Assembly (NCBI GenBank): GCA_964187785.1 | Contig: OZ076409.1 | Span: 15,378,001-15,442,000 of the forward strand | Reading direction: 5' to 3' | From: Amphiscolops sp. MND2022 | Lineage: Eukaryota | Length of the DNA stretch: 64,000 nt | Part shown: positions 1 to 52,999 of the stretch, piece after piece | How the letters are laid out: each line of letters begins with the position of its first letter | Numbering within the stretch: position 1 is the first letter of the stretch | The notes under the pieces: generated by a model | Database searches by the model: none | What the model saw: only the letters and a program-made list of their open reading frames with translations | Told to the model about the DNA's origin: nothing | Translations under genes and position numbers: made by a program

Positions 1-3000
1 GGGGATTGAATTTGTTCCGCACTTGACGTGATAGAGTGTTATTGCTTACACCCAACGTGGTTGTTTAATTCGACACATACCGAATATAGCTTTCTGAATT
101 CGTCCAACAATAGAATTGGAATGCTTACTTTAGAAGGGGCAAATTTTTCAACATAGGGATTTTTGGACTTTTTCCAATAACGTTGTCCCTTTTTTCACAT
201 CTTTTCAACAGTCAATGGCGTAGTGGTTGCGTGTTAGATTTCCATTTCAATGTCTTGAGTTCGATTCCCTCAATCAAAATTTTTTCAAAAACTTAGTCAG
301 CTTGGACAGTCTTTCAAAAGCCCTGGATTATTCTTTTTCCTCAGTGGTGCGCCTAAAACCACTGTTTCGCAAGATATCGTGGCCTAGAGGTTGCGTTGGT
401 GGTTAGGTTTGGTGTAACGTTTTTCAGGTATATTTGGGTTCGGTCCCCGGGGATGGAATATGTTCCCAGTTGAATTGATAGTGTTATTACTTACACCCAA
501 CTTGGATGTTTAATTCGACACATACCGAATGTAGCATTCTGAATTCGTCCACAATTGGAATTGGATTGCTTAATTTGGAAGCAACAAAACTTTCACATAG
601 GGATTTTTGAACTCTTTCCAATAACGTTGTCCATTTTTTCACATCTTTTCAACAGTCAATGGCGTAGTGGTTACGTGTTAGATTTCCATTCCAAAGTCTT
701 GAGTTCGTTTCCCTTAATCAAAATTTTTTCAAAAACTTAGTCAGCTTGGACAGTCTTTCAAAAGCACTGGATTTTTCTTTTCCCTCAGCGGTGCGCCTAA
801 AACCGCTGTTTCGCAAGATATCGTGGCCTAGAGGTTGCGTTGGTGGTTAGGTTTGGTGGAGCGTTGTTCTGGTATCTTTGGGTTCGGTCCCCGGGGATGG
901 CATTTGTTCCTCACTTGATTTGATAGAGTTTTACTGCTTACACCCAACGTGGTTGTTTAATTCGACACATACCGAATATAGCTTTCTGAATTCGTCCAAA
1001 ATTAGAATTGGAATGCTTACTTTGGAAGCCGCAAATTTTCCAAAATAGGAATTTTTGGACTCTGTCCAATAACGTTGTCCATTTTTTCACATCTTTTCAA
1101 CAGGCAATGGTGTAGTGGTTGCGTGTTAGATTTCCATTTCATTGTCTTGAGTTCGATTCCCTCAATCAAAATTTTTTCAAAAACTTAGTCAACTTGGACA
1201 GTCTTTCAAAAGCCCTGGATTATTCTTTTCCCTCAGTGGTGCGCCTAAAACCACTGTTTTGCAAGATATCGTGGCCTAGAGGTTGCGTTGGTGGTTAGGT
1301 TCGGTATAGCGTTGTTCTGGTATCTTGGGTTCGATCCCCGGGGATTGAATTTGTTCCGCACTTGACGTGATAGAGTGTTATTGCTTACACCCAACGTGGT
1401 TGTTTAATTCGACACATACCGAATATAGCTTTCTGATATCGTCCAAAACTGAAATTGAAATGCTTACTTTGGAAGCGGCAAATTTTTCAACGTAGGGATT
1501 TTTGGATTCTTTCCAATCACATTGTCCCTTTTTTCACATCTTTTCAACAGTCAATGGCGTAGTGGTTGCGTGTTAGATTTCCATTTCAATGTCTTGAGTT
1601 CGATTCCCTCAATCAAAACTTTTTTAAAAACGTTGTCAGCGTGGACAGTTTTTCAGAAGCACTGGATTATTATTTTCCCTTAGTGGTGCGCCTTAAACCT
1701 TTGTTTCGCAAGATATCGTAGCCTAGAGGTTGCGTTGGGATTAGGTTTGGTATAGCATTGTTCTGGTATTTTGGGTTCCGTCCCCGGGGATGCAATTTGT
1801 TCCGCACTTGAATTGATAGAGTGTTATTGCTTACACCCAACTTGGATGTTTAATTCGACACATACCGAATATAGCTTTCTGAATTCGTCAAAATTAGAAT
1901 TGGAATGCTTACTTTGGAAGCGGCGAATTTTTCAACATAGGGCTTTTTGGACTCTGTCCAATAACGTTGTCCATTTTTTAACATATTTTCAACAGGCAAT
2001 GGAGTAGTGGTTGCGTGTTAGATTTCCATTCCAATGTCTTGAGTTCGATTCCCTCAATCAAAACTTTTTAAAAAACTTAGTCAGCTTGGAAAGTCTTTCG
2101 AAAGCACTGGAATATTCTTTTCCCTTAGTGGTGCGCATAAAACCACTGTTTCGCAAGATATCGTGGCCTAGAGGTTGCGTTGGTGGTTAGGTTTGGTATA
2201 GCGTTGTTCTGGTATCTTGGGTTCGGTCCCCGGGGATGGAATTTGTTCCGCACTTGACGTGATAGAGTGTTATTGCTTACACCCAACGTGGTTGTTTAAT
2301 TCGACACATACCGAATATAGCTTTCTTAATTCGTCCAAAAATGAAATGCTTACTTTGGAAGCGGCAAATTTTTCAACATAGGGATTTTTGGATTCTTTCC
2401 AATCACATTGTCCCTTTTTTCACATCTTTTCAACAATCAATGGCGTAGTGGTTGCGTGTTAGATTTCCATTTCAATGTCTTGAGTTCGATTCCCTCAATC
2501 AAAACTTTTTTAAAAACGTTGTCAGCGTGGACAGTTTTTCAGAAGCACTGGATTATTCTTTTCCCTTAGTGGTGCGCCTTAAACCACTGTTTCGCAAGAT
2601 ATCGTAGCCTAGAGGTTGCGTTAGGATTAGGTTTGGTAGAGCGTTGTTCTGGTATTTTGGGTTCCGTCCCCGGGGATGGAATTTGTTCCGCACTTGAATT
2701 GATAGAGTGTTATTGCTTACACGCAACGTGGTTGTTTAATTCGACACATACCGAATATAGCTTTCTGAATTCGTCCAAAGTTTTAATTGGAATGCATACT
2801 TTGGAAGTGGCAAATTTTTCAACATAGGGAATTTTGGACTCTTTCCAATAACGTTGTAGATTTTTTCACATCTTTTCAACAGTCAATGGCGTAGTGGTTG
2901 CGTGTTAGATTTCCATTCCAATGTCTTGAGTTCGATTCCCTCAATCAAAACTTTTTTAAAAACGTTGTCAGCGTGGACAGTTTTTCAAAAGCACTGGAAT

Positions 3001-3640
3001 ATTCTTTTCCCTTAGTGGTGCGCCTAAAACAACTACTGTTTCGCAAGATATCGTGGCCTAGAGGTTGCGTTGGTGGTTAGGTTTGGTATAGCGTTGTTCT
3101 GGTATCTTTGGGTTCGGTCCTCGGGGATGGAATATGTTCCGCACTTGAATTGATAGACTTTTATTGCTTACACCCAACGTGGTTGTTTAATTCGACACAT
3201 ACCGAATATAGCTTTCTGAATTCGTCCAAAGTTTTAATTGGAATGCATACTTTGGAAGTGGCAAATTTTTCAACATAGGGAATTTTGGACTCTTTCCAAT
3301 AACGTTGTAGATTTTTTCACATCTTTTCAACAGTCAATGGCGTAGTGGTTGCGTGTTAGATTTCCATTCCAATGTCTTGAGTTCGATTCCCTCAATCAAA
3401 ACTTTTTTAAAAACGTTGTCAGCGTGGACAGTTTTTCAAAAGCACTGGAATATTCTTTTCCCATAGTGGTGCGCCTAAAACAACTACTGTTTCGCAAGAT
3501 CTCGTGGCCTAGAGGTTACGTTGGTGGTCAGGTTCGTTAGAGTGTTGTTCTGGTAGCTTTGGGTTCGATCCCCGGGTTGAACTTGGATCAGCACTTGAGT
3601 TGATAGTTTGGTTTTCCTTTAACCCAACTTTTTTGTTAAA
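1..3640 (+). repeat. tRNA-derived tandem satellite, ~450-bp monomer, about 8 copies, two degenerate tRNA-like modules per monomer
   Basis: The monomer recurs at ~1, 449, 892, 1339, 1786, 2232, 2672, 3123. Modules carry Pol III box A/box B-like motifs (TGGCGTAGTGG...GAGTTCGATTCC; TGGCCTAGAGG...GGTTCGRTCCC) but the stems are broken. Confidence 0.85.
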
Positions 3641-3897
3641 TTTGACATTAATCATATAGGGCAAATATTGTTGAACTATTGAATACCAAAAATTCCTTTG
3701 GACTTCGGCTTTTCCTTTTCTGGATTACTCGAAGGTCAAGACTCTAAATGCTTTTAGAAAGCAATATCCGGATGTTTTCGGAAAAGAGGCATCTACTATC
3801 ATGGATAACAGTTTGGAATTTTCTCATTCACTTTTTGATATCTCATATTTAACAAACCTCTTTAATTAGCCGCCGTAGGCGGCAGCGGGTTTGCTAG
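3640..3897 (+). mobile_element. Helitron-type 3' terminus (hairpin + CTAG), inserted before T in SL exon
   Basis: Hairpin GCCGCC-GTA-GGCGGC (3869-3883), then 10 nt, then CTAG (3894-3897), followed by TTAGGCT, the right half of the target ACAACAA|TTAGGCT. Confidence 0.8.
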
Positions 3898-4796: not shown

Positions 4797-4915
4797 AGGC
4801 TACAACACCTGGTGTTCCCAAGCGGTCTCCCATGCAAGTACTAACCAGGCCCTTTGTTGTTTAACTTCGGTGATCGGACGAGAACCGGTGCATTCAACAT
4901 GGTATGGTCGTAGCC
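4797..4915 (-). rRNA. 5S rRNA (variant; box C TTGGATGGG changed to TTGCATGGG)
   Basis: 119-nt GGCTACGACCATACC...GTGTTGTAGCCT followed by a T-run terminator; 2 substitutions versus array consensus. Confidence 0.95.
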
Positions 4916-5007: not shown

Positions 5008-5142
5008 AAGTTAGTGCAGACTAGCTTGTTCCTTGTTCAAAAATTGGGCAGCAGACCACTTTCGCAGTCTGTTTTCAAATAAAACTTATCAATAGGGTTG
5101 GAATACTTACCTATTTAATAAGTTTATCACAACAATTAGGCT
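5008..5142 (-). ncRNA. Spliced-leader (SL) RNA gene, uninterrupted
   Basis: Exon (A)GCCTAATTGTTGTGATAAACTTATTAAATAG|GTAAGT. AAACTTAT..ATAGG pairs with CCTATTGATAAGTTT across the donor. CAGAC-TGCGAAAGTG-GTCTG stem, Sm site AATTTTTG, 3' stem AAGCTAGT/ACTAACTT. Ends approximate. Confidence 0.85.
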
Positions 5143-5867: not shown

Positions 5868-6026
5868 TTAAATAAATATATAAATCAAAATCAATTTACA
5901 CTACAGCTACAAAAATTTAGCATTGTTACAAAATATTCATGGCTGACTTTTCAAAGATAATAGAAACACAGATGAAAAGAATAAAAGAATAGCATCATGA
6001 ATTTGTGTGAAGTTATCGGTCGAGAT

Positions 6027-9000
6027 TTAGACTTGGCATCGAGTTTTGATATATTTCAAGTATTTTCCTTCATATTCCGACCACGATGAAAAAAGTAATG
6101 CTACAACTAGTTTCTGGGCTAGTGGATTTTCGTTTAGCCATATGTCTTGCCAATTTCGTAGGTTAAGAAAAGTTTTGATGTTTTGGATTTTTTCACAATC
6201 AAAGAAAAGATGTTGCCAACTTTCAAATTCGGTTTCACATGCAAAAAAAAGGGGATGAGGTACCAAGTTTTGAAGCCATTTTTCCTGTTTATCAGGGTAT
6301 GCATTCATTATAAAATGATAGATATAGTTTTTGTCAAAGGACTGGAGTTGTGTATTGTTCCATAACTTTTTGACAAACAAATCCAGTATGTTTGTGTCAA
6401 TATTTTGCGAAAAGGCTGTTTTGGCAATTCTTGGCAAGCAAGATATGTTTATCAGGCTAGAATTTAGGAAATCATACACTTCTTTTGATTTCGTGTCAAC
6501 ATTTATGGTGAGATTTTGAAAAAAATAATGGAGAATGATCGTATTATCTGTATTTATAGTCATCTCAATTTTGTCTTTTTTCAGGTCACTTGTTATCATT
6601 TTTAACCATTTCGATTTTTGAAAGTTTTTTTCAGGTTCGTTTGCTAATGAAACTTTAACATTCATTATCTTAGCCACTGATACTGCTTTGTTCAAGTTTT
6701 TTTAAACCTATTCCACCATCTCTTCTTTCCGTGTGTATTACGTCTTGACTAACATTATGTTTTTTCTGTAGCCAGAAATTGTCTACCATTTTGGAATTCA
6801 ATTTTTTTCAAGAACGTCTTTAGTTGTGTAAAATGTCTTAGCTTGTATATTATTTTGGATAGAACGAAAGTTTCGATGTTGATCGCTCTGGCTCTAAATG
6901 AAGTGTTTTTATTAATGAATTTTGGAATTTGGTTGATTGCTTTCCATATTTCATTCCTAGTTTCTGGGTCCATAGTTCCTTTAGTGGTCGTTTTAACTCC
7001 GAGAATTTTCACACAGTCTACTACTTTGATCTGTCTGTTCTCATCAGTATTTGGGATTGTTCTCGTTTTTGCTAAGATCTCTGATTTGTCATAATTGATT
7101 GCTAGTCCAGTTAAAGCTTGGAATTTTTTTGGAAGATTTTTAGTAACCGATTAATTGAAGTAGCTTTCATTGCTACTGTTATATCATCCGCGTATGCAAT
7201 GACTTTTTGTTTTTGACTACTTAATATTTTCTTCGAGTTTTGAATTCTCTCTAAGAGTGGCTCCATTACCAGGTTGAAAAGTAGCGCAGATAAAGGGCAG
7301 CCTTGTCTGACACCTCTAGTGATCTCCAAAATTTCGGAAAATTCAGAATTGAAATCAATAATTGATTTGGTGTCTGCATAGAGAGTTTTTATTAGAGACA
7401 TTGTGCTATTATCAATTGCCAAGTATTCAAGCATTTTCAACATGAAATCTCTGTCTACACAGTCAAAAGCTTTTGAAAAATCAAGGGCACATAATAAATC
7501 ATCTTTTTTCAATTCTATTGAGTATTGTCTAATTTTGGTTAAAGCCGAGTGAATATCTCTTTTTGGGAAATGAGCGTATTGATGATGATTTTCGATTATT
7601 GCGTTGCAGATTGGTTTTATTCTGAACGCTAGAATATGTGAAAGAATTTTTTGATCGGAGTTAATTAAGCTTAATGGTCGAAGGTCCGACACTTTCTTTA
7701 CCATTAAAAATTTTTTGGGAATAAGTTTCATAATAGCCATATTGAAAGATGGAGGAGCCACTCCTGTTTTGATTATATCGTTGAAAACATCTGTCAAAAG
7801 CGGAACAAACAGATCAGAGTACTTTTTATAGAGGTTAGAAGTTAAGCCATCAGGACCAGGAGCACTATCTTTGTTGAGTTTGTTAATTGCTCTTTCAACT
7901 TCAAATTCCGTAATTTCTTCATGTTCTAAGTCATTTGTTTCATGAACTTGACATAATTTTTCTCGTTTTTCCTTAAAAAACATTTCCAAGAATTTATTTT
8001 GTTGTTCATCTGTTTCTTGGTTTTTTGGTCGAGCTTCAAATTGTTTAGTATAGAAGCCTACTAATTCATCAAAGATTTTGCTCTTGTCATTGATTATTGA
8101 TCCATTTGAAGCCTCAAATTCTTGTATTTTGAATTCAGGTCACCTTCATTGGCCTCCATGAAAAGGTTTTTAATTTTTTTATCTCTAATTTTGCCTCAGA
8201 CATTTTTATCTCTGAAAGCGCAGATGTTTTTGAGTCTAAAATTTCCAAAAGTTCAGATTTTTTATGAGAATCATTGGTATTTTTCATATCTGATTCTAGT
8301 TTTTCAATTTCACGTACAAGGTTTTCTTCCGTTATTACTTTTTTACGTTTTTCTTTGATACATAAGAGTCTCAGGGAGTCTCTTAGCCTAGCTTTGAAAA
8401 CATCGTATCTTTTTGACAAACTTATCGTGTTTTCCAATGCAGTCAAGCTCGTTTTCAATATTTCAGTAACAGCCTGTTTATTTTCTAGGACTGAGTCATT
8501 AAGCTTGAAGTATCCATTTTTGAAATTATTTTGGTTCCGATACAAGTGCAAAAGTTTGTGGTCGGAAAAAGGCAAAAACAGAACTGAGAGCTCTAGGTTT
8601 TGTTCATTAGAATTTAAAAAGCAATAGTCAATTCTACTATGTTTTTTAAAACGCCTATCATAATGCGTGGTACTGACTGGGATCTGCTTTTTTCCAATAT
8701 CTTTTAAAACATATTCATTTAGTTTGGTAATGATAGCTCGATGCCTCAATACTCTGATATCGTTTGACTTGACTTTTTCATTCAAATTTTCATAGTCTTC
8801 AAAGTCAATGGCATTGAAGTCACCAGCAATGATGAGATTTTGGTGGTATTCAAGATTCAATTCTTCAATGGAAGCAATGAAGTTTTCTGCTAAAGTGTCT
8901 TTTGGGTTAATATAAGTATTTACTATAGTGGTAGTTTGGTTTTCAACCGTTAGAGTGACAGTGAGACACGTATTAGTTTTTCCAATAACCTCGTATACAC

Positions 9001-9274
9001 AGTGTTCAGGAAATATTGTCATGAGACCACCTGAGTTCATTATTGCTGGTACAGTTTCATACTTCAATTTGTTAAGTTTTAAAATTTTTTCATGTTCTTT
9101 GCGTAATTTCCAAAGTTTAGTTTCTTGTATTAAAATGCAGAACGTTTTCGTCTTCCGATTTTTCTCAATTTTTTCTAAAAGCTGAATTAACTTAGTTGAA
9201 TTAGCTAGACCGCGGACGTTCACACAAAAAATTTCAATCAAATCAGCCATCAGTTTGTAAAGAGGTAGTTCCAT
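6027..9274 (-). pseudogene. ORF2: APE endonuclease + reverse transcriptase + C-terminal Cys/His motif, broken by at least 3 frameshifts
   Basis: APE motifs NVRGL, IQET, GDFN, SRIDY, SDH; RT motifs PGPDG, RPLSL, DFSKAFD, GVRQGCPLS, YADD; C-terminal ESWQHLFFDC. Confidence 0.93.
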
Positions 9275-10510
9275 TGACTTCTTTCGAAAGTTTTTCTATT
9301 TGTTTTTGCAGTTTTTTGGCTCTTTTTATTTGTTTCTTCCTGTTTGAGGAGTTTGTACTGGATTCTTCTCCAATTTCACTTCTATTTCGTTTCGTGGTTC
9401 TTGTAGTTACTTTTGTCCAATCATTAGCAGCCTCGTCTGGTTCCATATTTGTCGTTATTGTGTCATTCGTAGCTTCGGTTTGCTCGTCTTCTTCAGTATC
9501 AGAGCTAGTTTCTGAGTCTGTATGGGTGCTGCTATTTTCATCCTCCACAATTCGTAGTTTCCCTTCCTCTCTTTCCATTTCTGCAGGGTGATCAGTCTCT
9601 GGTTTTTCGATAGGTTTTGGTTTTCGGTTGATTCTACACCAGTCTTCATGGTGTCCTCGGTAGCGTTGTCTCTTCTCTTCTTTGCATTTTTGGCATTCAT
9701 GCAGAGCAGGAATGCTAGCATAGATTGGAAGCTCACACCAGTAAGCAATGTCTGAGGAAGCTCGTGCCTTTGACCAGTTTTCCAATTGTTCTTGCTCTTC
9801 GTGGTTGTTAATTTTAACCGCAATTTTAGCTTTGCCTGTGTAGAACGTGCCGAGTTCAGTTCTCTGACGTTCCCGTTGAATTTCCCCTAGTTCTGCAAAG
9901 TCAGGGACTTGCAGTAGTTCCATTAACTGCTTGTCGTCACAGAGTGCTGGCAAGTTGTTTATTCTGACGTCATGTACTTTTGGGAAGGCAGATGTCCTGA
10001 CTATCCAGGTGTCTTCAGCTGTCGGAAAAACAGTTCGATTCATAATTTTGAGTCCATTTAGCTTAATGCGAGCAACGTCTTCTTCCGCTTCGATTGGGGC
10101 GATTACCAGTAGGACCTGTAGCTTCTTTTCTCCCAGTTTCATGTTAGTTCGTGAAATTGTAATCATTTCCCGGTAACGAGGATTGAACACGCTGAGGATG
10201 TCTTTATAAGCTATTGACATTGCCGTTTCGAGAGCAGCGCCATCGGTGAAAAGTTCCTTCGTTAGTGGAGGTATAATTTTCATTTTCAGCACTTGACGAC
10301 ATGTCTGAATTCGTAAGCAATGTTGGTAACAGCTTTACTGAAGTTCATTGTTTGCGCGGTTTTTTCGGTAATTTTAGTTTCGTCAGGCTGGCGGCTAGCG
10401 AGTTTTTCCTGAGGGTTTTCCGTTGAATTCTCGTTTTCGTTTACTATCGCACAATCAGGTAAAGAGTTTATGTAATCTTGTTGTTTCTGTCTGGCAGCTT
10501 TTTCCGACAT
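9243..10510 (-). pseudogene. ORF1 (RRM-like region + CxxC..H..C zinc knuckle), one frameshift near 10290; overlaps ORF2 start by 32 bp
   Basis: VRINNLP, FYTGKAKI, CQKC..GHHEDWC motifs; position upstream of ORF2; first ATG at 10510 (MSEKAARQ). Confidence 0.8.
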
Positions 10511-10814
10511 TTTTCGTAACAATTGGTAATCGATTCAAAGTAACTGAGGTAAAAAGGAAAATAGGGAGGATTGAAGTAACTTTCGCTAGTTTCAAGAGCC
10601 TCAGAAGGGGAGAAAAAGTAAGACGAGTCTAGGGGGAAACGAACGTTCCAAGGCTTTCCACGGCCGAGGAAACGACGTTAAGACTGGTAGCGTTTTGAGG
10701 ACTGCTAACAGCCACCCGCCAAGGAAGCTTCAACTTGGTCCTCAGGCCTTTGGTCCCCATTTTGACCCCTTTTGCAAAACTGTCACCGAAGTTGAACCAC
10801 ATTTCTGACAAAAA

Positions 10815-12968: not shown

Positions 12969-14084
12969 AAAAGCAAAGAGTCAATTTTTGGAGCGCGAGA
13001 CTCCTATCTGCGGTACGGACTTACCATTACCAGCCAACAACTTGTTTTGAGGAGAAATTCTCATGAAAAGACGACGTTTCAAGTTATTGACATCTGATGA
13101 AACAAAAATATTCCAGAAAAAGTGTGAGAAAGCAAAATTTTGACTCTATTACGAAAATGTATGCTGAAAAGCATAAATTAGTAAGCTTAAAAATGAAATT
13201 CCATGTAAGCAGTTGGATTTATTAACGGACCGTGCTAAACACGGGCGGGTTTGAAATTTTACAAAATTTTTGCCAAGTCCCGGATTCGACTGGGGAACTT
13301 CAGGGAAATGGAAGTCAGGGTACAAATGTGATGAAACTCATAATTGGCATGAGATACCCAAAAAAAACTACCGAAAATATGAACACACCCCCCCTCCCCC
13401 ACTCTACATGCTTAAAAATTGAAAAATTTCAAAATTTTCAAAAATACCCGGGAATGATGCGAAACGTGCAAAAATGTTGTTAAAAGCGTGGAATCATCAA
13501 AAATGAGGGGAGAAGGGCCCTGTGAACACTTCCTTAGGGCATATAAAATCTCAAAACACGAAAAAAACAGCTAGGTTCAACTTGAGTTTTTCAGCAATTT
13601 CGAGCAAGTTTTGACCGTGGAAAAGAATTAAATTAAGTTATTAGAAATAAACCCCGTGAACACTTCCTGAGGACATATAAAATCTCAAAAATGGAAAAAA
13701 ATCTGAAACACACTCGGATCAACCTGGAACTTTTTCACAATTCGGTACATGTTTCTGACCGTGAAAGACAACTAAAATCAAATTTTAAGAGATATTTTTT
13801 TTTCTGTAGACCTCATTTCACCGGCAGTCATTCATCCGAAATAAGAAACCCAAGTTCAATAGTGCCCATGACTTGTCAACTCATTTTATACCGCTGACTG
13901 AGTACCTATGAATCGATGCAAAGCCGGATTATGCAAAGTTTGATATGAAGCAATTTATGGTGTTTATTGCACATGACGAAGTCAATGTGCATCGCAGTCC
14001 AGCTAAGAAAGTTTTTTTTTGTAGCCAACACATAATAAGCCAGTAGCCAACTTCATAATAAGCCCCTTTTAGAGAAAAGCCAAA

Positions 14085-14155
14085 ACCCCAGAGAGATTCG
14101 AACCTGCAGCCTCCCGATTGCGCGGCATAAGTGTTAACCACTGTGCCATAAGGAC
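14085..14155 (-). other. tRNA-like / SINE-head segment (left arm)
   Basis: GTCCTTATGGCACAGTGG (box A) ... GGTTCGAATC (box B); degenerate stems. Confidence 0.6.
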
Positions 14156-14448
14156 GTTATTGAATAAAGTTGAACTGTTGAATATATACGCATGCTATTA
14201 AAATAATATATATACGCATATTAAAATAATCGTTGTCTTCGTCATGTGTTGCGAAGCACCGCTTCGCCTCTGTGTACATATCCATACTGAGCAAAGAAGG
14301 TAAATTTGTTGAAACTCTATAACCCTGAAAAGCTTGTCTTCGACCATGAATTTTATGTAAGTCATGTTTATGCAGTTGTTTATGAAATGGAAACAGACTT
14401 ATCGAACAAGGATAACTATAGTAATTGCTTCCAGTATTCATGAAAAAA

Positions 14449-14947
14449 TTGAATATCAGCCATATACGACCGTGTTCATCGAATTTTAGCTACTTTGGAC
14501 CTATAATATGGTCTTGTATATTGAAAGATAGATTCAATATCAGTCCTATACGACTGTGTTCATCGATTCTTAGCTACTTTAGACCTATAGTATAGTCCTG
14601 TAGATTGAAAGATAGGTTGAATATCATTCCTATACGACTGTGTTCATCGATTCTTAGCTACTTTAGACCTATAGTATAGTCCTGTAGATTGAAAGATAGG
14701 TTGAATATCAATCCTATACGACCGTGTTCATCGCTTCTTAACTACTTTAGACCTAGAGTATAGTCCTATATATTGAAAGATAGGTTGAATAACCGCCGTA
14801 TAGGACCGTGGTCATCGAATCTTAGCTACTTTAGACTTATAGTATGGTACTGTATATTGAAAGATGAATTGAATATCAGCCCTATACGACCGTGTTCGTT
14901 GAATCTTGGCTATATTAGACATAAAGTATGGTTCTGTATATTGAAAG
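14449..14947 (+). repeat. 84-bp minisatellite, 6 copies (left arm)
   Basis: TTGAATATCA-like unit start at 14449, 14533, 14617, 14701, 14785, 14869. Confidence 0.9.
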
Positions 14948-16938
14948 AGATGCATCAAAAGATAGACCGGTAACGATGCACCAAAAGTATCTTTTGAAGT
15001 GCCATATGCGATTCAAATGGTAAAACCCATCTTCGGGAAAAACGATTTTTCAAAGATCAAAACAATTAAAATCAAAAATTTCAAAGTGTGCTCCCTGAAA
15101 ATTTGCAAGCAAGTACGGGCTTCACCCCAGCATTTCTGGAAACGATGAATCAAGAAGCGTCTTTTAAAGCTCCATATACGTTCCAAATGCTGAAACCCGT
15201 CTCGGAAAATAACAATTTTGCAAGGTTCAAAAACTTTCTAAAACTTTTCCAAAACTTTCGAAGTGTTCTCTGACAATTTGGAAGCGTGTACGGGCTTCAT
15301 TCTAGCATTTATGGAAACGATGAATCAAATAGTATCTTTTGAAGCACCATGTTTCATCTACGTGAAAAAAGTCATCTCGGAAAAAAGATTTCAAAAGAAC
15401 AAGAAGCGTTTTCAAAAAACGTAAAAAATTCCAAAATGTGCTCAATGAGTGGTTGAGAGTTGATACGGGCTTTTACCCAGCTTTTCAGGAAACGATGGTT
15501 CAAGGAATGTCTATTGAAGCATCATATACAATCCACATGGCAAAACCCTAAACTTTCAAAGTGTGCTCCTTGAAAATTTGGAAGCTTGTACGGGCTTCAT
15601 TGTAGCATTTATGGAAACGATGAATCAAATAGTATCTTTTGAAGCACCAAATTTCATCTAAGTGAAAAAAGTCGTTTCGGAAAAAAGAGGTTTCAAAGGA
15701 ACAAAAAGCGTTTTCGAAAAACGTAAGAATTAAAAAATTCAAAGTGTGATCCCTGAGTAGTTGGGAGCTAATACGGGCTTTTACCCAGCTTTTACCCAGC
15801 AGGAAACGATGGATCAAGGAATGTCTTTTGAAGCATCATATACAATCCACATGGCAAAACCTCAACGCTCAGAGCTCACGGAAAGTAGATCATCTGTATT
15901 TCTCCTCTAGATTACTACATAGCAAGTATTTCCCAATATCTAGAGCTTTACATTATCACGCATTGTTCAATTTTAGAGCTGTACGTTTTCTGCCAATTAT
16001 CTCCCGGTTAATGCCGAGAATAACATGCCAATTAATGCCGAGTTTTGAATATTAAATTTTACTATTTTCAAAAGTCATGCAATCTCAACAACATGAGACT
16101 GACAACATTTGTCAGTTATAAAAGCAACTCTGAAGTGAGTCAGATTGAGTACGAAATAACTCCACTGAAAAGGCTGAGGCACGTTCAACAGCTGTGCTAA
16201 ACATTTACACATACTATGTCGGTACCGCTTTTGAGCTTATCCAGCGTCGCGTTCTACAGAGTCTTTTTGCCTAATTATTTTCAGATTGTTTGACTCACGT
16301 TAAAAACAAATGCCACTGGGGACACGCCTATTGAAGCCACTGTTTAATAATTAATCACAAGTACAAAGGGCTGACGTCGCTTTCATGTTTACACAGCGTG
16401 TCGTTCTGTTTGATCAATCTGGAGTTTGTAACTACGGAGATCTGTATGCCACTCTAGACACGCTCATTTAAGCTACTGTTTAATAAACAATCAATAAATA
16501 CAAAGAACTGGCGTGGCTTTCATGTTTACACAGCGTGTCGCTTTATTTATTCAATGTGAAATTGACAACTTCGGAGATCTATTGATCCAATATCAATCTT
16601 GCATTCGGTCTGCTCGACGAAAACAACAAAAAATCCATACTAAATTTGTTTACGATGAACTAGCAAATGGAAATGTTTTGAATTTTGAGGTCTCGATTCT
16701 GTTTCAAGCATTAGTATCTTGTTTCAAAACATTCATTAACTTTAGTGAATGAAAAAAACTAGGACGTCATTTCGGTGGTGTTAATATTTTGTGCCTGATG
16801 AACATTCTTTTGTCTGCAACAAGTTCTCTGTTGTGTCCAATGCCATTGAGCTTCGGTTTACTTCAAGTATCATGTTAATTTTTTTTTTCAGACGTTTGTC
16901 TTGAGATCACTGGTAGCAAAGCATAATCACCAGTCAAA

Positions 16939-17322
16939 ATGTATCAGAAATCAGCCATGACTTTCAGCTCTCTCACATCCTCAAAAGATCTCGAGTTTGG
17001 AGATGCCCATATTGACGTGGCATCCTCTGATAAACGACTTGTCCGCGTGACCCGAAACACCTATAAAAACAGTGGTCTTACATACATCAACATCAAGTTG
17101 TTCAAGAAAAAAGAGGACCAAGATGACTTTCGCTTGCAACAGAGAGTGGGTCTCACTGTCAAGGAGTTTCAGGAAATGATAGCGAATGTAGAAAACATTA
17201 GCATGGGCCCTCCCAAATCAGACGACAGTGCGGCGGAGAAGAAAATCAAAAAGAGGATTGCTCAAAGCTATACGGGGGCTGCTGACGTCAAGAAACAAAA
17301 AACTGCTGATAAGATGGAATGA
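16939..17322 (+). CDS. PC4-like (ssDNA-binding fold) protein, 127 aa
   Basis: KRLVRVTRNTYKNSGLTYINIKLFKK...RVGLTVKEFQEM resembles the PC4 beta-beta-beta/GISL-helix pattern. Intact in both arms; a splice acceptor (ttttttcag) lies upstream. Confidence 0.65.
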   Translation: MYQKSAMTFSSLTSSKDLEFGDAHIDVASSDKRLVRVTRNTYKNSGLTYINIKLFKKKEDQDDFRLQQRVGLTVKEFQEMIANVENISMGPPKSDDSAAEKKIKKRIAQSYTGAADVKKQKTADKME

Positions 17323-18267
17323 AAAGTTGAACAACTGATTTCAAAAGTAATTACAGCATACAAGTTTTGTTAATGTTCCTAGTTTTAATCTGATTTCATA
17401 TCCATGAAGTGTGATAAAATAGGTTTTTCGAATGTTTTTGATTCTATTTCATTTTTCTTTCATCGGTACATCCCATCTTCTCAATTGCTTTTTGTTTGAT
17501 GTGAACTGTGATGTGATGCTTTCGTTTTGTTTGCCCCTGATTTTGTCTTTTCTTCAATCTACCCTTACCATCATTAGTTATTTTATCATTTATTTCGTTG
17601 TTGTTTCCATTGCATACTCTCCTCTCCTCATTTACGCTCTATCCCATCTTATCCTATAACGTATCGATTTGAGTTTATTTTTGATGAAGTGTTGTTGTCC
17701 CCTTCCTGTGGTATCCGACCTTTAATGCAATACTTACCTCTCATACGTTTGAATTAATTACTTGATTTAACTTTTTAATGTGCTTCATTCTGTTCAATCC
17801 TGTCGTTGTTCCAAATCTGTACGTTAATGGAATATTCAATATTTAGCTAATCCGCACTGTTTCATTTGTTAGTGTGATGCTTCTGTTTAATCTTAAAGTC
17901 CAGTGAAGTAATATATATTTGATATGTACATTTTTTCAACTCGTAGGTTTTTGAATTAGTTTCATCATCCGACTTTTACTTGTTGTTGAGATAGTATTGG
18001 GTGTTGAAAACACTTCGTAAAAAACTACCCAAAAACTTTGTCACAGTTTTTTGTTTCATAGCAACTTTGACGAAAAACATCCATTTTTGAACGTTTTTGG
18101 GTAAAGGAATCTTTTCGGTGGCGTTTCTCAAGAATGTGCAAGCATCTTCAAACTCGAGTTGACTCATGCAACTGTAAAACCCGTGATCCAAGCATCTCTT
18201 TGTTCTTTTATAGTCAATGTGAAGTATTTGTATCAACTTTCCACTACAGTTTTTTTGTAGACAAAAC

Positions 18268-18681
18268 ATGGTGGAAGCAATGCATGAACAGCATCCGGAC
18301 TTTTTCAAACAACATCGGAAAAATTTTCGGTACCTGGTGTTAGAAAAGGAACCAAGGATTGGGCTTGACATTCCTGCAGGATCAAATTACGCATTTGGAG
18401 TTCATTCTTTTACCTCTGATTATCTTTGCGGCTTTGAGAAACAACGACACTACCATGTTCTTTTTGAGTGCGATTCCACTAACAGGAAAGGTTACAATGT
18501 ACCCTGCCTCTATTCAACTTTCTGTCTATTGTTGGCGGATTGTTCGAGTCTCGTCATGCAAGGGGAAATTATGAATCGTCTGCAGGTTGCAATGAAGTAC
18601 AACGTGAAAGAAAACAAAACCTTGCTAGCGCAGGGTCGACGCAAAGTTCCTGTTGTTCAAACGAAATGGATCATTGTGTAG
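18268..18681 (+). pseudogene. HxH-motif protein, truncated by a 433-bp deletion
   Basis: Matches 24460-25038 up to ...KVPVVQ, then joins downstream sequence at a TTCAAA microhomology. Confidence 0.6.
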
Positions 18682-19257
18682 TGGCATTTTAACGCTGTCA
18701 TTAATTCATCAGAATGTTGCGCATATCGTGACAGTGTGACGGAAGCTGTCAAATCTTGAAAAAGCAGGAGTATCAAGTTCGCGACACTCGGAAAGGAGAA
18801 CTGGAATTTCATGCATGTAATTTAGTTCTGTACATGTACTGTCTAGCCAATGAGTCAGGTCAGATATTGAGATATAGTACTCCAGGGTACAAGCGTGGTT
18901 TATTCAAGACTATACACTCAATGATTAAACTGCAACACATGCTTTGTTTGCCGTTGCAAAGTTAATTCTTCCTTTTCAACTCCGTCAAGCAACTCGTTCC
19001 AACCAGTTCTCTCAAGACTCAAAACGTCACGATAGAGCAACAATTTTGATAGAATGTGCCCACTCATACACATCAATTATATTTTGGTTGTTTCTATATC
19101 CAAAGGCTTTCAGTGTTAAGCAGAATTATTAACTCTCAAGCTCAGATATCAAACTAGAGTAGAAATAAGAAACGGTCAAAATGTATATTCGTTTTTGAGT
19201 TTTGATTTTTGGTGAACAATTGGGCACATTCTTCAACTTGTCAGCAATTGAGCTTCC

Positions 19258-19853
19258 GTGAAACTACCAATGCAGACTTTCACTGCTGTGTCTGGCAACT
19301 CGCGGTTCACATTTTATGAAACTTGGTTCAACAAAACAATAGCAATAATTGAAGAGGCATGGTGGGAGGACGTCTGGTCGATCAAAAGCTCAGTTTCAAT
19401 CCCAAAAGATTTGTTTATTCTGCTGCGAGCTCAATGTGTATCGGGGGGTACTAATCCAAACATCTTTAACCTAACGGACACTGTAGAAACGCCATTCACT
19501 ACAACAATAGTTTATGATCGTTTCGAGTTGCCGTATGGTGTACGACAACTCCTGTTTGACATTGACTGTCGAAATATACCCGTTTCAGAAAATCAGTTGG
19601 GTTGCATGACAGACTTGGAAAATTTAGAAAGTTACTGGGATATTAGAGGTACACCTCAATCACCACAAGAAGCTTCGTGTTCTCTGTCACCAAAGATTGC
19701 CGACACAAATCAAGAGCAAATTGCTTTTGACAGTCCAATCAAATCAAAACTAGCCCAGTAAAGGAATGCGCGCCAGCGCCAAAGAAGAATAGAGTTGAAA
19801 AATTCAAAAGGGCGGCATTGGAAATAGCTAAGCTTGATCTCGAAAACGTTTGA
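19258..19853 (+). pseudogene. Frameshifted copy of the 198-aa arm ORF
   Basis: Mirror of 23019-23615 with ATG changed to GTG and a frameshift near 19745. Confidence 0.6.
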
Positions 19854-20949
19854 CAAGCTTTCTTGAAGTGATATTTTATACCTTGTTTGTTTGTATCATC
19901 GTTCAAATCATTGCTTCAACTTTGTCATTCAAGTCATTTTGTAATTTACATTTCAGCCATTCTTTTCCCTAATGCCTAGCTTGATCACCTCACAAGAGTA
20001 AATTTGTGCGGCTTTGAGCGTTTGAATCGCTAAAGAAATTTGATATCGCAGCTTGTCTCAACAATCAGACGCCGAGTGAGAGAAAAATAGCTAAACCTTG
20101 ATGGTGAATTACCCTTTGCTTATGCTTACTCTTCTAGGCTCTAGGCAAAGCCAACTATTTTCAGAAAACGAAAAATGTTTTAAAAAATCTTTTGGAAACT
20201 TAACTTTACAATGTTCATTTGAAATCATCACTTCTCAGACTTTTGTCGTTGAATACAAAATCCAATACGAAGCACTGATTGTTTTTCAAAGAATTGATCG
20301 ATGGTCTCAGTAAAAATTAAATATTTCCTTGCTCGCTCGACGCGGTAACCAGATGGATTCCTTGTCAATTTTGATGATTGCCATGCACTCTCCAATACAA
20401 CTATTCGTCAATATGGGTGTGCGAAAAACCGCAGTCTAGTCCAACAGAATATCGCATAAACGTGTGTGTAGACCACCAGGCATTGTCTGAAGTAGAGCAG
20501 AACTTTTTAAAGCTAATAGTTAAGGTCCATGTTCATTCATGTTCTTTCAAACTTTTGGGAACGACAACCTACTTTCGTACTTTCTATGTGAAGCCAAACT
20601 ATTTTTGATACCCATTTTACTGTTTCACCGGCAAAACGAGGTGAAAATGGTTCTTGAAAAGACATTTCTCTGATGTTATCATTATAGTAACGTATCGGGT
20701 ACGACTGAATATGTAAGTCAAAGCTCTCAGGTTACCAAATTTAGGTTCAAGAAGTCTGAATCGGAAAAAACATAGAATACACCAATAGAAATTCTTTGCC
20801 TATTGAATCTAATCAGTCAACGGACTCATCCCTATAGTCTGTAGCAGCTCAGCTCATGAAAACTAGGTTGGAAATACAGTTTGATCATTAAATTAGTTTC
20901 AAGATTATAAAACAAGTCGAACGTAACAATTGTTCACAGAATAAATACT

Positions 20950-22137
20950 TCATTCTGCTGAAAAGGTAACTTCGATGAACAATGAATCCTCCTTCAGGTA
21001 TCCACGATCTTTGCTGCATCCATGTATCAAGCTTGAAAAAAAATATGATCCCACTTTTCTTCAAACTTACTCAAAACAAAATTTGTTTTAAATTGTCTCA
21101 CCTGTGTGGTAGGAAGTGCAGTATACCAACCGACAAGTTTCCTTTACACGAAGACGGACGCTTGAAGCAGCTCCCAGTTTTTTCAGTAGGGACTATTGAT
21201 CGCGTCCATCTATCAGCAGGATCATGTTGACTAATGACGCTGATTTTGATTGCAGACTTGAAAGGTCATTCAAGAATAGCATCATACATTCCGGGAATTA
21301 GGGCAACAAAAACAGAAACGTGATTGCCAGCTGCCACCTCACATCCAAATGGAAATAGTCTCACATACAAAGAATATCCGGGAGAACCTGTGAGAATTAT
21401 TGGACTACAAAAGTCTGTTGGCACTTTTCAATTTTTGATTTGAATTCTTCAGCACTTTTTCCCGCCTCGAAAATATGGTTGAAGCCACTGAGTTTCCAAA
21501 CAACTGACCCATTACGGCCACATTCCAGACTTTTTATACGCTCAAGCAAATGGCGAGAAAATTGTTCGAGTGGAACAATTTTTTTCGAGTGTCTTTCAAT
21601 CAATTCGTTTTGACGCTTTATGACATCTTCGTTTAGACTTTCTCTTTTCACAGGTTTAACCTCTGAGCTGCTTTCCTTGATATCTCCATTGCTTGCTGCG
21701 TTTTCCTTGACTTCGCCACTGCTTCTTGCTTCATTGAACAAATTAGACTGAAATTTATTTTCTTTTATCCCTTTCCTTTGACTCGAGACCTCCAGAGTTT
21801 CTGTAGAGCCAGAGGTATTTCTTGTTTCACAGACAGTGTTTCCGTTTTTCCTCTCAATCATCTCATTCCTCAGTTCGGATAGCTCTTCTTGCATTCGTGC
21901 TGTAATAGGTTTCATTGAATGGATGTACTGAAATACTTTTACATTGAGTAAGGGGAATTTTTTCGCTAGTGACCACAACTCATTTACTCGCAATTCAGAT
22001 ATTTGAGTTTTCAAGCAAAGAACCTCATCTCGCAATTTGTTGAAACTGGCAATTGGCTCTTCATTTTAATTGATACCCATGTGGTCCTCAGTGTTTCGCT
22101 GCTCTGGCAAGTTTAAAGTTGAAGCGTTGCTTTCCAT
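20950..22137 (-). pseudogene. TRAF-family (coiled-coil + MATH/TRAF-C) pseudogene with retained intron 21032-21101
   Basis: NGSVVWKL..., FCSPIILTGSPGYSLYVRLFPFG...HVSVFVALIPGMYDAILE*PFK..., CFKRP..GNLSVG, then a GT-AG intron and GYLKEDSLFIEV. TGA at the conserved Trp (21266-21268), a frameshift near 21420 and an early TAA near 22067. Confidence 0.9.
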
Positions 22138-23018
22138 AGAGAAACTCTGAAAAAAAGACTTTTAAACGTATGAAACATGGCTTGATGAGAATGCAAGCCT
22201 AGAAAGATGTCTTATCAAGAACCAATTTCACCTCGTTTTGCCGGTGAAACAGTAAAATGGGTATCAAAAATAGTTTGGCTTCACATAGAAAGTACGAAAG
22301 TAGGTTGTCGTTCCCAAAAGTTTGAAAGAACATGAATGAACATGGACCTTAACTATTAGCTTTAAAAAGTTCTGCTCTACTTCAGACAATGCCTGGTGGT
22401 CTACACACACGTTTATGCGATATTCTGTTGGACTAGACTGCGGTTTTTCGCACACCCATATTGACGAATAGTTGTATTAGAGAGTGCATGGCAATCATCA
22501 AAATTGACAAGGAATCCATCTGGTTACCGCGTCGAGCGAGCAAGGAAATATTTAATTTTTACTGAGACCATCGATCAATTCTTTGAAAAACAATCAGTGC
22601 TTCGTATTGGAGTTTGTATTCAACGACAAAAGTCTGAGAAGTGATGATTTCAAATGAACATTGTAAAGTTAAGTTTCCAAAAGATTTTTTAAAACATTTT
22701 TCGTTTTCTGAAAATAGTTGGCTTTGCCTAGAGCCTAGAAGAGTAAGCATAGGCAAAGGGTAATTCACCATCAAGGTTTAGCTATTTTTCTCTCACTCGG
22801 CGTCTGATTGTTGAGACAAGCTGCGATATCAAATTTCTTTAGCGATTCAAACGCTCAAAGCCGCACAAATTTACTCTTGTGAGGTGATCAAGCTAGGCAT
22901 TAGGGAAAAGAATGGCTGAAATGTAAATTACAAAATGACTTGAATGACAAAGTTGAAGCAATGATTTGAACGATGATACAAACAAACAAGGTATAAAATA
23001 TCACTTCAAGAAAGCTTG

Positions 23019-23615
23019 TCAAACGTCTTCGAGATCAAGCTTAGCTATTTCCAATGCCGCCCTTTTGAATTTTTCAACTCTATTCTTCTTTGGCGCTGGC
23101 GGGCATTCCTTTACTGGGCTAGTTTTTGATTTGATTGGACTGTCACAAGCAATTTGCTCTTGATTTGTGTCGGCAATCTTTGGTGACAGAGAACACGAAG
23201 CTTCTTGTGGTGATTGAGGTGTACCTCTAATATCCCAGTAACTTTCTAAATTTTCCAAGTCTGTCATGCAACCCAACTGATTTTCTGAAACGGGTATATT
23301 TCGACAGTCAATGTCAAACAGGAGTTGTCGTACACCATACGGCAACTCGAAACGATCATAAACTATTGTTGTAGTGAATGGCGTTTCTACAGTGTCCGTT
23401 AGGTTAAAGATGTTTGGATTAGTACCCCCCGATACACATTGAGCTCGCAGCAGAATAAACAAATCTTTTGGGATTGAAACTGAGCTTTTGATCGACCAGA
23501 CGTCCTCCCACCATGCCTCTTCAATTATTGTTATTGTTTTGTTGAACCAAGTTTCATAAAATGTGAACCGCGAGTTGCCAGACACAGCAGTGAAAGTCTG
23601 CATTGGTAGTTTCAT
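23019..23615 (-). CDS. Hypothetical protein, 198 aa, basic NLS-like C-terminus (PPAPKKNR)
   Basis: ATG-started long ORF in AT-rich DNA, co-oriented with the other arm genes. Confidence 0.55.
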   Translation of the reverse strand: MKLPMQTFTAVSGNSRFTFYETWFNKTITIIEEAWWEDVWSIKSSVSIPKDLFILLRAQCVSGGTNPNIFNLTDTVETPFTTTIVYDRFELPYGVRQLLFDIDCRNIPVSENQLGCMTDLENLESYWDIRGTPQSPQEASCSLSPKIADTNQEQIACDSPIKSKTSPVKECPPAPKKNRVEKFKRAALEIAKLDLEDV

Positions 23616-24459
23616 GGAAGCTCAATTGCTGACAAGTTGAAGAATGTGCCCAATTGTTCACCAAAAATCAAAACTCAAAAACGAACATACATTTTGACCG
23701 TTTCTTATTTCTACTCTAGTTTGATATCTGAGCTTGAGAGTTAATAATTCTGCTTAACACTAAAAGCCTTTGGATATAGAAACAACCAAAATATAATTGA
23801 TGTGTATGAGTGGGCACATTCTATCAAAATTGTTGCTCTATCGTGACGTTTTGAGTCTTGAGAGAACTGGTTGGAACGAGTTGCTTGACGGAGTTGAAAA
23901 GGAAGAATTAACTTTGCAACGGCAAACAAAGCATGTGTTGCAGTTTAATCATTGAGTGTATAGTCTTGAATAAACCACGCTTGTACCCTGAAGTACTATA
24001 TCTCAATATCTGACCTGACTCATTGGCTAGACAGTACATGTACAGAACTAAATTACATGCATGAAATTCCAGTTCTCCTTTCCGAGTGTCGCGAACTTGA
24101 TACTCCTGCTTTTTCAAGGTTTGACAGCTTCCGTCACACTGTCACGATATGCGCAACATTCTGATGAATTAATGACAGCGTTAAAATGCCACTACACAAT
24201 GATTCATTTCGTTTGAATCTAACGGCGCAATTTCATCATGTACACAAATTTTACTCCTAAGCGTGACCAGCGTTCAGATGAATTTTTGATAGTTCAAACA
24301 TGTCAGTACACAATGATCCAATTTATTTATACCTGACTGCTCAATTTTAATCCTTAATAAATAATTTTTGCTGTCGAGCACTGGCTGACGTTGACAAGGA
24401 AATACTGGTTTGAAGATTATATTCATGCCACATTTCATTCCTCATCAACTATGAAAGCT

Positions 24460-25038
24460 TTACAACGTTTTGGAATTGTCAATCGAAAAATACAAATTAG
24501 TAGTGTCGATGCTTCCGTATCCGTCATTGAGAATGTCTAAGATTCTGTACAAAGTTGCAGCCGATTGGCCTTGAATCAACTGCTGAAATCGGCTAAACGT
24601 GGCAGTCGGTAAGAAACCAGTTTGCACACTTTTGTCTCGTCTGATTTGAACAACAGGAACTTTGCGTCGACCCTGCGCTAGCAAGGTTTTGTTTTCTTTC
24701 ACGTTGTACTTCATTGCAACCTGCAGACGATTCATAATTTCCCCTTGCATGACGAGACTCGAACAATCCTCCAACAATAGACAGAAAGTTGAATAGAGGC
24801 AGGGTACATTGTAACCTTTCCTGTTAGTGGAATCGCACTCAAAAAGAACATGGTAGTGTGGTTGTTTCTCAAAGCCGCAAAGATAATCAGAGGTAAAAGA
24901 ATGAACTCCAAATGCGTAATTTGATCCTGCAGGAATGTCAAGCCCAATCCTTGGTTCCTTTTCTAACACCAGGTACCGAAAATTTTTCCGATGTTGTTTG
25001 AAAAAGTCCGGATGCTGTTCATGCATTGCTTCCACCAT
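24460..25038 (-). CDS. Hypothetical protein, 192 aa, with HUH-like motif PHYHVLF
   Basis: Intact ORF; His-hydrophobic-His followed by three hydrophobic residues; several downstream Tyr. Confidence 0.55.
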   Translation of the reverse strand: MVEAMHEQHPDFFKQHRKNFRYLVLEKEPRIGLDIPAGSNYAFGVHSFTSDYLCGFEKQPHYHVLFECDSTNRKGYNVPCLYSTFCLLLEDCSSLVMQGEIMNRLQVAMKYNVKENKTLLAQGRRKVPVVQIRRDKSVQTGFLPTATFSRFQQLIQGQSAATLYRILDILNDGYGSIDTTNLYFSIDNSKTL

Positions 25039-25981
25039 GTTTTGTCTCCAAAAAAACTGTAGTGGAAAGTTGATACAAATACTTCACATTGACTATAAAA
25101 GAACAAAGAGATGCTTGGATCACGGGTTTTACAGTTGCATGAGTCAACTCGAGTTTGAAGATGCTTGCACATTCTTGAGAAACGCCACCGAAAAGATTCC
25201 TTTACCCAAAAACGTTCAAAAATGGATGTTTTTCGTCAAAGTTGCTATGAAACAAAAAGCTGTGACAAAGTTTTTGGGTAGTTTTTCACGAAGTGTTTTC
25301 AACACCCAATACTATCTCAACAACAAGTAAAAGTCGGATGATGAAACTAATTCAAAAACCTACGAGTTGAAAAAATGTACATATCGAATATATATATTAC
25401 TTCACTGGACTTTAAGATTAAACAGAATCATCACACTAACAAATGAAACAGTGCGGATTAGCTAAATATTGAATATTCCATTAACGTACAGATTTGGAAC
25501 AACGACAGGATTGAATAGAATGAAGCATATTAAAAAGGTAAATCAAGTAATTAATTCAAAGTATGAGAGGTAAGTATTGCATAAAAGGTCGGATACCACA
25601 GGAAGGGGACAACAACACTTCATCAAAAATAAACTCAAATCGATACGTTATAGTATATGGGATAGAGCGTAAATGAGGAGAGGAGAGTATGCAATGGAAA
25701 CAACAACGAAATAAATGATAAAATAACTAATGATAGAAAGGGTAGATTGAAGAAAAGACAAAATCAGGGGCAAACAAAACGAAAGCATCACATCACAGTT
25801 CACATCAAGCAAAAAGCAATTGAGAAGATGGGATGTACCGATGAAAGAAAAATGAAATGAATTCAAAAACATTCGAAAAACCTATTTTATCACACTTCAT
25901 GGATATGAAATCAGATTAAAACTAGGAACCTTAACAAAACTTGTATGCTGTTATTACTTTTGAAATCAGTTGTTCAACTTT

Positions 25982-26365
25982 TCATTCCATCTTATCAGCA
26001 GTTTTTTGTTTCTTGACGTCAGCAGCCCCCGTATAGCTTTGAGCAATCCTCTTTTTGATTTTCTTCTCCGCCGCACTGTCGTCTGATTTGGGAGGGCCCA
26101 TGCTAATGTTTTCTACATTCGCTATCATTTCCTGAAACTCATTGACAGTGAGACCCACTCTCTGTTGCAAGCGAAAGTCATCTTGGTCCTCTTTTTTCTT
26201 GAACAACTTGATGTTGATGTACGTAAGACCACTGTTTTTATAGGTGTTTGTGGTCACGCGGACAAGTCGTTTATCAGATGATGCCACGTCAATATGGGCA
26301 TCTCCAAACTCGAGATCTTTTGAGGATGTGAGAGAGCTGAAAGTCATGGCTGATTTCTGATACAT
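25982..26365 (-). CDS. PC4-like protein, 127 aa (right-arm copy)
   Basis: 2 aa differences from 16939-17322. Confidence 0.65.
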   Translation of the reverse strand: MYQKSAMTFSSLTSSKDLEFGDAHIDVASSDKRLVRVTTNTYKNSGLTYINIKLFKKKEDQDDFRLQQRVGLTVNEFQEMIANVENISMGPPKSDDSAAEKKIKKRIAQSYTGAADVKKQKTADKME

Positions 26366-28656: not shown

Positions 28657-29155
28657 CTCTCAATATACAGAACCATACTTTATGTCTAATATAGCCAAGA
28701 TTCAACGAAATCGGTCGTATAGGGCTGATAATCAATTCATCTTTCAATATACAGTACCATACTATAAGTCTAAAGTAGCTAAGATTCGATGACCACGGTC
28801 GTATACGGCGGTTATTCAACCTATCTTTCAATATATAGGACTATACTCTAGGTCTAAAGTAGTTAAGAAGCGATGAACACGGTCGTATAGGATTGATATT
28901 CAACCTATCTTTCAATCTACAGGACTATACTATAGGTCTAAAGTAGCTAAGAATCGATGAACACAGTCGTATAGGAATGATATTCAACCTATCTTTCAAT
29001 CTACAGGACTATACTATAGGTCTAAAGTAGCTAAGAATTGATGAACACAGTCGTATAGGACTGATATTCAATCTATCTTTCAATATACACGACCATATTA
29101 TAGGTCCAAAGTAGCTAAAATTCGATGAACACGGTCGTATATGGCTGATATTCAA
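28657..29155 (-). repeat. 84-bp minisatellite (right arm)
   Basis: Mirror of 14449-14947. Confidence 0.9.
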
Positions 29156-29448
29156 TTTTTTCATGAACACTGGAAGCAATTACTATAGTTATCCTTGTTC
29201 GATAAGTCTGTTTCCATTTCATAAACAACTGCATAAACATGACTTACATAATATTCATGGTCGAAGACAAGCTTTTCAGGGTTATAGAGTTTCAACAAAT
29301 TTACCTTCTTTGCTCAGTATGTATATGTACACAGAGGCGAAGCGGTGCTTCGCAACACATGACGAAGACAACGATTATTTTAATATGCGTATATATATTA
29401 TTTTAATAGCATGCGTATATATTCAACAGTTCAACTTCATTCAATAAC

Positions 29449-52988: not shown

Positions 52989-52999
52989 TATCACAACAA

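Follow-up and report, generated by a model that had tools for sequence, protein, structure and literature searches.

Junctions of an L1-group retroelement clan and a Helitron-like lineage within 18 bp of the spliced-leader exon in an acoel-type 5S/SL array

The 5S/SL array and its interrupted genes

The window, that is the whole stretch of 64,000 bp that was analyzed, harbors an array with a tandem unit of 904 bp, in which a 5S rRNA gene and a spliced-leader (SL) RNA gene are arranged head-to-tail, both on the minus strand. The 5S gene (4797-4915, minus strand; Rfam RF00001) is present in 12 copies, all of which are full length. A previous reading of this DNA from the sequence alone (the sequence-only reading) had stated that no 5S gene is struck by an insertion. 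This is correct for all 12 copies, but an avoidance of the 5S gene is not significant (probability 0.43-0.65 for 3-6 random events).

The SL exon (nt 1-32, with nt 1 at 5142) runs on the minus strand from 5142 or 5141 to 5111 and is followed by a GT donor at 5110. The leader printed in PMC9911081 for the acoel Symsagittifera roscoffensis has exactly this sequence. The same exon heads eight mRNA-like contigs, which contain long ORFs or the starts of ORFs, and is also present in SL genes with other spacers. As it is common to several hosts, the array is called acoel-type only. In all 11 SL-headed genomic copies the A of nt 1 is retained, with no more than 3 nt of additional sequence upstream. 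The first base of three of the eight mRNA-like contigs lies 6 nt before nt 1, and these 6 bases are conserved across three SL promoters. Judging from the sequences, the exon may begin up to 6 nt earlier, its start being either 5142 or 5148. The SL intron (5043-5110, minus strand) contains the GT donor within a stem-loop, a U-rich Sm-like stretch and a second hairpin. It is nearly invariant in two loci from other samples (L042 and L031). The donor and both hairpins are conserved in three sources, but with fold z-scores of only -0.9 to -1.7 and none of 28 pairs covarying. A plus-strand reading of the SL, with an Sm-like word at 5158, was rejected, as its fold is weak (z +0.78) and the published leader corresponds to the minus strand.

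Genomic sequences headed by the whole or part of the SL exon were observed at L013, L019, L020, L023, L027, L038, L043, L044, L058, L074, L076 and L088. In most of them the exon is directly followed by ORF1 and APE(-RT) frames of CR1/L2-like appearance; L023 harbors an RT-like frame of a different kind. The CR1/L2-like sequences are likely retroelements whose RNA was trans-spliced to the SL and later re-inserted.

Eight of the 13 SL loci in the window are interrupted. The other five (5125, 11143, 12048, 12951 and 30965) are intact, in agreement with the earlier count. The 18-bp target, SL nt 1-18, corresponds to 5125-5142 (minus strand) and is duplicated by two element families, A and B; the bond occupied by Helitron-like ends is 5135|5136, and the 3' junction of an L1-like element is equivalent to 5131|5132. 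Folding of the target DNA revealed no stable hairpin in this stretch. Two array junctions are located in the spacer and not in the SL gene, namely the 5' end of the L1-like element at 10757 and a 17-kb insert (13208-30319, no strand assigned) with long inverted arms of about 7.4 kb, which serves as an internal negative control. The ORFs of this insert gave no usable database match; by eye, HUH-like and Walker-B-like words are seen in both arms and a coiled-coil/TRAF-like frame in the center.

An L1-group clan with junctions at nt 1 and nt 18

Family A comprises seven ORF1-only copies of 1980-1982 bp in five SL loci, one of which contains three copies in tandem. The copies are located on the minus strand at 31887-33867, 34789-36769, 37692-39672, 40595-42575, 43498-45479, 45498-47477 and 47496-49475, and each is bounded by SL nt 1-18 at both sides. 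The ORF of 506 aa is open in all seven copies, which are 98.7-99.8% identical and have identical ends. Three to four of the A units have spacer variants in common, and the two members of one tandem pair are distinguished by 3 bases. The common variants indicate that part of the copy number is due to amplification of the array and that seven copies do not represent seven insertion events.

Family B is represented by a full, ORF1-only copy of 1619 bp with one frameshift (51370-52988, minus strand) and a 5'-truncated copy of 953 bp (50399-51351, minus strand), whose 5' junction contains a short inverted segment and which is bounded by SL nt 1-18. The promoter-side duplication of the full copy is cut by a Helitron-like element, leaving nt 8-18 at 52989-52999. 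The 18-bp duplication (nt 1-18) is common to both copies. Since the truncated copy has its own 5' junction and yet the same duplication, there were at least two independent B insertions, and it can be argued that the enzyme, rather than homology of the RNA, determines where the second nick is made. The duplication of nt 1-18 that had been noted for the two families is thus seen at all seven A copies and as the duplication shared by both B copies.

The ORFs of A and B match ORF1 of the decayed L1-group element in the window (E=5e-17 and 2e-19), to which the proteins are 24-25% identical, and they share 29% identity with each other. Both families combine the 18-bp target duplication with an A-rich 3' end (AAA). 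Their 3' tail, ending in TCTT(T/C)AAA, is shared with two autonomous elements from outside samples, L021 and L031, and so is the insertion site. By their sequence, A and B are HAL1-like relatives of the APE-RT elements of the L1 group that possess ORF1 and lack ORF2, and we infer that they are mobilized in trans by the ORF2 of an autonomous partner.

The ORF1 proteins of A and B, together with P0123 and P0124, carry an extra C-terminal domain of about 120 aa (32272-32670 in A, 50784-51152 in B), which is absent from two aligned autonomous ORF1 proteins. A structure model based on four sequences reached a pLDDT of 88 and a pTM of 0.81. No Foldseek match was found at E<=0.001 and the best VIA Z was 4.1; searches of Pfam, PDB sequences and the Atlas gave no match either, which is not proof of a new fold. 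The protein cluster of family A has 77 member sequences; a full search with P0124 retrieved only 43 relatives.

Relatives of these elements in other samples were located by scanning metagenome contigs for SL nt 2-18, a pattern that misses junctions at nt 7|8 and nt 11|12. The scan yielded 87 loci with 24 real SL copies. An SL-gene context was found in five of the 87 loci, four with an element junction and one (L042) intact. L021 and L031 are elements with an APE-RT ORF2, whose tail TTCTT(C/T)AAA adjoins SL nt 1; the exon and intron that follow are intact. Between the two RTs the identity is 71%, and to the RT piece of the window it is 44%. In L045, nt 1-18 is followed by a 5' UTR, an ORF1 that is 30% identical to that of the window L1-like element, and an APE. 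L084 combines a promoter and nt 1-18 with a new 5' end of an element, of which 41 aa of protein sequence gave no match. In L021, L031 and L045 one side of the insertion is visible in each. In an RT tree with 50 of 51 rows (the too short P0026 being left out), rooted at the midpoint and built without labelled Tx1 references, the RTs of the window, L021 and L031 group together in a starred clade (16 rows, 99/96). To the L045 APE, P0020 is closest (82%), and it lies within the enclosing starred clade (23 rows, 95/94). In viral contigs, neither the SL 3' pattern nor the Helitron 5' motif nor the ORF2 profile had a match.

Four families had been proposed to converge on the site. However, A, B and the L1-like element are homologous in ORF1, A and B share their 3' tail with two outside elements, and the SL-flanked RTs belong to one clade. 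This indicates two independent lineages, a retroelement clan and a Helitron-like one, instead of four. The outside loci were found through an SL pattern and hence demonstrate that the junctions are precise, but not that copies are absent from other places; on the sequences at hand, the retroelement clan is very probably SL-specific.

The contigs of run X1 cover the SL and spacer only, and nothing follows from them on the absence of family A there. One of them (record 1, window position 31885; depth 2.9) joins SL nt 2 to another sequence, the end of which repeats SL nt 5-14 over 10 bases. It possibly represents a further element at the SL site and is regarded as a lead only.

Helitron-like ends and the junction after nt 11

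Both margins of the window are occupied by Helitron-like elements on the plus strand. The 3' part (1-3897) contains 446-bp tandem repeats with tRNA-like motifs, a hairpin at 3869-3883 and a terminal CTAG, which is joined to the T of SL nt 7 (CTAG|T, 3897|3898). The 5' part (53000-64000) starts with TC after the A of SL nt 8 (A|TC, 52999|53000) and consists of tandem tRNA-like repeats. Both ends therefore lie between nt 7 and nt 8, as the sequence-only reading had placed them. The hallmarks of Helitrons (5' TC, 3' CTRR, a hairpin about 11 nt from the end, and insertion into A|T without duplication) are present, with CTAG as the 3' end. The two ends belong to different copies with common internal repeats (up to about 88%), and both copies run off the window. 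No RepHel transposase is encoded in the parts within the window, where no ORF exceeds 127 aa. The two ends may also go back to one insertion that was duplicated with the array.

The interiors (1-3650 and 53140-64000) are tandem arrays of 446 and 610 bp. Their tRNA-like motifs score 26.5 bits with the Rfam tRNA model, below the cut-off of 29, and ARAGORN predicted no tRNAs. At 55977-56659, 59132-59814 and 61221-61903 the right element contains diverged (about 74%) pieces of 5S/SL spacer, which are possibly captured array DNA. Within the conserved 5' end (53000-53075) are words that we take to be CCAAT- and TATA-like and that face outward, to the 3' part of the SL and element B.

A scan of genome contigs for SL nt 12-32 revealed one locus, L088, on a stray eukaryote-like contig that represents a third source. 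Here SL nt 8-32 head a CR1-like element, and a Helitron-like 5' end is joined at nt 8. The first 75 nt of this end are homologous to the window sequence from 53000 onward (score 58, compared with 27 for the best of 2000 shuffles). Bond and orientation are the same as in the window, and the interior is unrelated beyond 75 nt; L088:1-1100 is a repeat that is unrelated to the window arrays and tRNA-like by eye. In the genome behind L088, neither the SL nor the Helitron sequence matched a second time above control level. As the Helitron in the window (53000) interrupts the duplication of B, it arrived after B and had no need for nt 19-32, and L088 suggests that no SL promoter is needed for insertion. 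Both cases thus favor a sequence motif in roughly nt 1-18 over the promoter. Together with the mRNA-like contigs that begin 6 nt upstream of nt 1, they leave the earlier proposal that the start of transcription is targeted without support.

Alternatively, SL specificity is confined to the retroelement clan. The Helitron would then be an ordinary AT-inserter, of which one insertion into an SL unit was multiplied with the array, and L088 would be a coincidence or a chimera derived from a Helitron-interrupted SL transcript that was spliced onto a CR1-like RNA. According to PMC4778049, Helitrons require only AT in AT-rich DNA; two of the 64 AT steps of the unit are located within the 18-bp target, the outside case is a single one, and more searches for the Helitron 5' motif gave no match. 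However, L088 shares bond and orientation despite its dissimilar interior, and even a chimera would place a diverged Helitron at nt 7|8 of the SL gene of another host. The ordinary-insertion explanation is therefore unlikely, though it retains some weight. From its sequence junctions, the Helitron lineage is probably SL-specific, with the one outside locus as support.

The junction after nt 11, which the sequence-only reading had listed as a further target, belongs to the decayed L1-group element at 5868-10757 (minus strand). It is indeed present, the 3' end being joined to SL nt 12 (5867|5868). The element has the layout of the L1 group, with ORF1 at 9243-10334 followed by a frameshifted ORF2 that contains an N-terminal APE, an RT and a C-terminal Cys/His motif. 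Pfam recognizes RVT_1 (E=2e-27) and Exo_endo_phos (E=2e-5 to 3e-5, just below the curated cut-offs). A profile of 15 clade members aligns to residues 8-880 of human L1 ORF2p (E=4e-123) and contains the APE catalytic residues, whereas R2 proteins match the same profile at 1e-49 or worse. With two ORFs and the APE ahead of the RT, this organization is unlike that of NeSL/CRE. The element is the only autonomous copy in the window, a single copy with several frameshifts and without the 18-bp geometry. It is conceivable, if rather doubtful, that it had a specificity of its own and nicked 11 nt inside the exon. Its 3' end adjoins nt 12, its tail is unlike that of A and B, and its RT belongs to a distinct sub-branch with P0011, P0012 and P0024 (the P0011 cluster has 34 member sequences). 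On the other side, its 5' end lies in the spacer about 520 bp away and the promoter-side duplication is absent, as deletions in a single decayed copy predict, and its sister elements use nt 1. Thus, the junction after nt 11 is probably that of one damaged copy with a deletion at the junction and not a separate target.

A guide-type mechanism was also considered, for which IS608 is a precedent. In this case an SL-like motif, located about 36 nt inside the 5' end of the Helitron, would pair with the target and so guide insertion. Tested post hoc against shuffles, the alignment of the window 5' end to SL nt 4-18 has p=0.016, but it is absent in L088 (p=0.56) and the duplex energies are not distinctive (p=0.055 and 0.41), so that pairing is very unlikely. 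The motif is presumably also a CCAAT-box-like word. Least probable is a small number of chance insertions followed by array amplification, with the site being accessible, rich in AT and strongly transcribed but not recognized by its sequence, because the near-identity, identical ends and common spacer variants of the A copies and the two junctions in the spacer are outweighed by RTs of only 44-71% identity that have the same nt 1 and nt 18 junctions in different hosts, by the truncated B copy with its unchanged duplication and by L088, which lies outside any SL gene. For the retroelement clan this explanation is already largely refuted.

Two lineages on one exon in relation to known systems

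APE-type retroelements, not restriction-like ones, and a Helitron-like element recur at fixed bonds of the SL exon, including in other samples, which upholds this part of the sequence-only reading. Direct observations are the junctions, the domains encoded, how the elements are related, and their recurrence in several sources. As relatives from other samples are located at the same positions, both lineages likely recognize the 18-bp SL sequence. We consider it probable (about 0.75) that this stretch bears fixed-position junctions of two unrelated lineages that both recognize a short motif within nt 1-18. We also lean, less firmly, towards the broader view that acoels harbor a Helitron lineage homing to one SL bond and an old APE-type L1 clan, with autonomous and ORF1-only members, on the same 18 bp.

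Nicking and priming in the retroelement clan are modeled on target-primed reverse transcription. First, the antisense strand would be nicked immediately before SL nt 1 by the endonuclease of ORF2. The resulting 3'-OH would serve as primer on the element's short A tail, and a second nick 18-19 nt downstream would generate the 18-bp duplication. A and B, which encode ORF1 with the extra 120-aa domain, would borrow ORF2 in trans. Each insertion separates the SL gene from its upstream region and regenerates the target, which accounts for the tandem arrangements A-A-A and B-B. Probably it also places the element under control of the SL promoter; for R2, PMC4494074 discusses transcription together with the target. 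In the case of the Helitron, a RepHel transposase, not seen here, would read the site and join non-autonomous copies by ligation at the A|T bond that links nt 8 to nt 7. No duplication would result, and the copies would be oriented opposite to the SL. Unequal crossover in the array would then multiply or remove units with their insertions.

If this is true, the Helitron lineage is a eukaryotic rolling-circle transposon with a multi-base specificity for a multicopy RNA gene, and the retroelement clan represents SL targeting by an APE-type LINE. The open-access literature, which was the scope of our search (Repbase and subscription journals being outside it), yielded no SL-specific APE element and no sequence-specific Helitron. 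A clan that keeps its site across RTs of 44-71% identity would provide a natural panel for how APE domains read DNA. A Helitron with a specificity beyond AT would open the question of site choice by RepHel and could give a site-specific integrase for large cargo. R1 and R2 in rDNA are examples of a comparable balance between host and parasite. With eight of 13 SL loci interrupted, and with 30% of the genes trans-spliced in one acoel as given in PMC9911081, the array is a test case for such a balance.

The Helitron-like ends resemble those of Helibat/Helraiser as described in PMC4778049, with 5' TC, 3' CTAG, subterminal hairpin, A|T insertion and no duplication. The preference reported there for Helraiser is only AT in AT-rich DNA, whereas here three ends are found at one bond of one gene and RepHel was not seen. 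Target-specific DNA transposons of eukaryotes include Dada, Pokey and CryptonV (PMC8869645, PMC3706591), which likewise home to multicopy sequences. These use DDE or tyrosine-recombinase enzymes, and the available text of PMC8869645 names no HUH/rolling-circle element among them.

SL-specific retroelements are known from Caenorhabditis (NeSL) and trypanosomatids (CRE/SLACS/CZAR) and belong to the restriction-like group according to PMC3636483 and PMC4640811. Like the clan described here they are non-LTR elements in SL exons, and CRE also duplicates its target. However, as far as these sources describe them, their one ORF carries a restriction-like nuclease at its C terminus, while the present elements have two ORFs, an N-terminal APE and an acoel-type SL as target, and NeSL deletes target bases where A and B duplicate 18 bp. 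Since the SL-targeting retroelements in the cited texts all use restriction-like nucleases, the APE clan would be a further, independent origin of this habit. In its organization the clan resembles the target-specific elements of the Tx1 clade, such as Keno in U2 snRNA genes, Tx1L, Kibi/Koshi and Tx1-Mar (PMC4494074, PMC4640811). As presented in these papers, they are L1-group elements with ORF1 and an APE-RT ORF2, a fixed site in a multicopy small-RNA gene, a target duplication and non-autonomous partners at the same site. Their listed targets are U2, U5, 5S, microsatellites, satellites and transposons, whereas the target here is the SL exon, and the likeness does not imply membership of Tx1. 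Finally, A and B correspond to HAL1 (half-L1) in the description of PMC5753468, a non-autonomous L1 derivative coding for ORF1 only. Unlike mammalian HAL1, they are site-specific and carry an added C-terminal domain of 120 aa.
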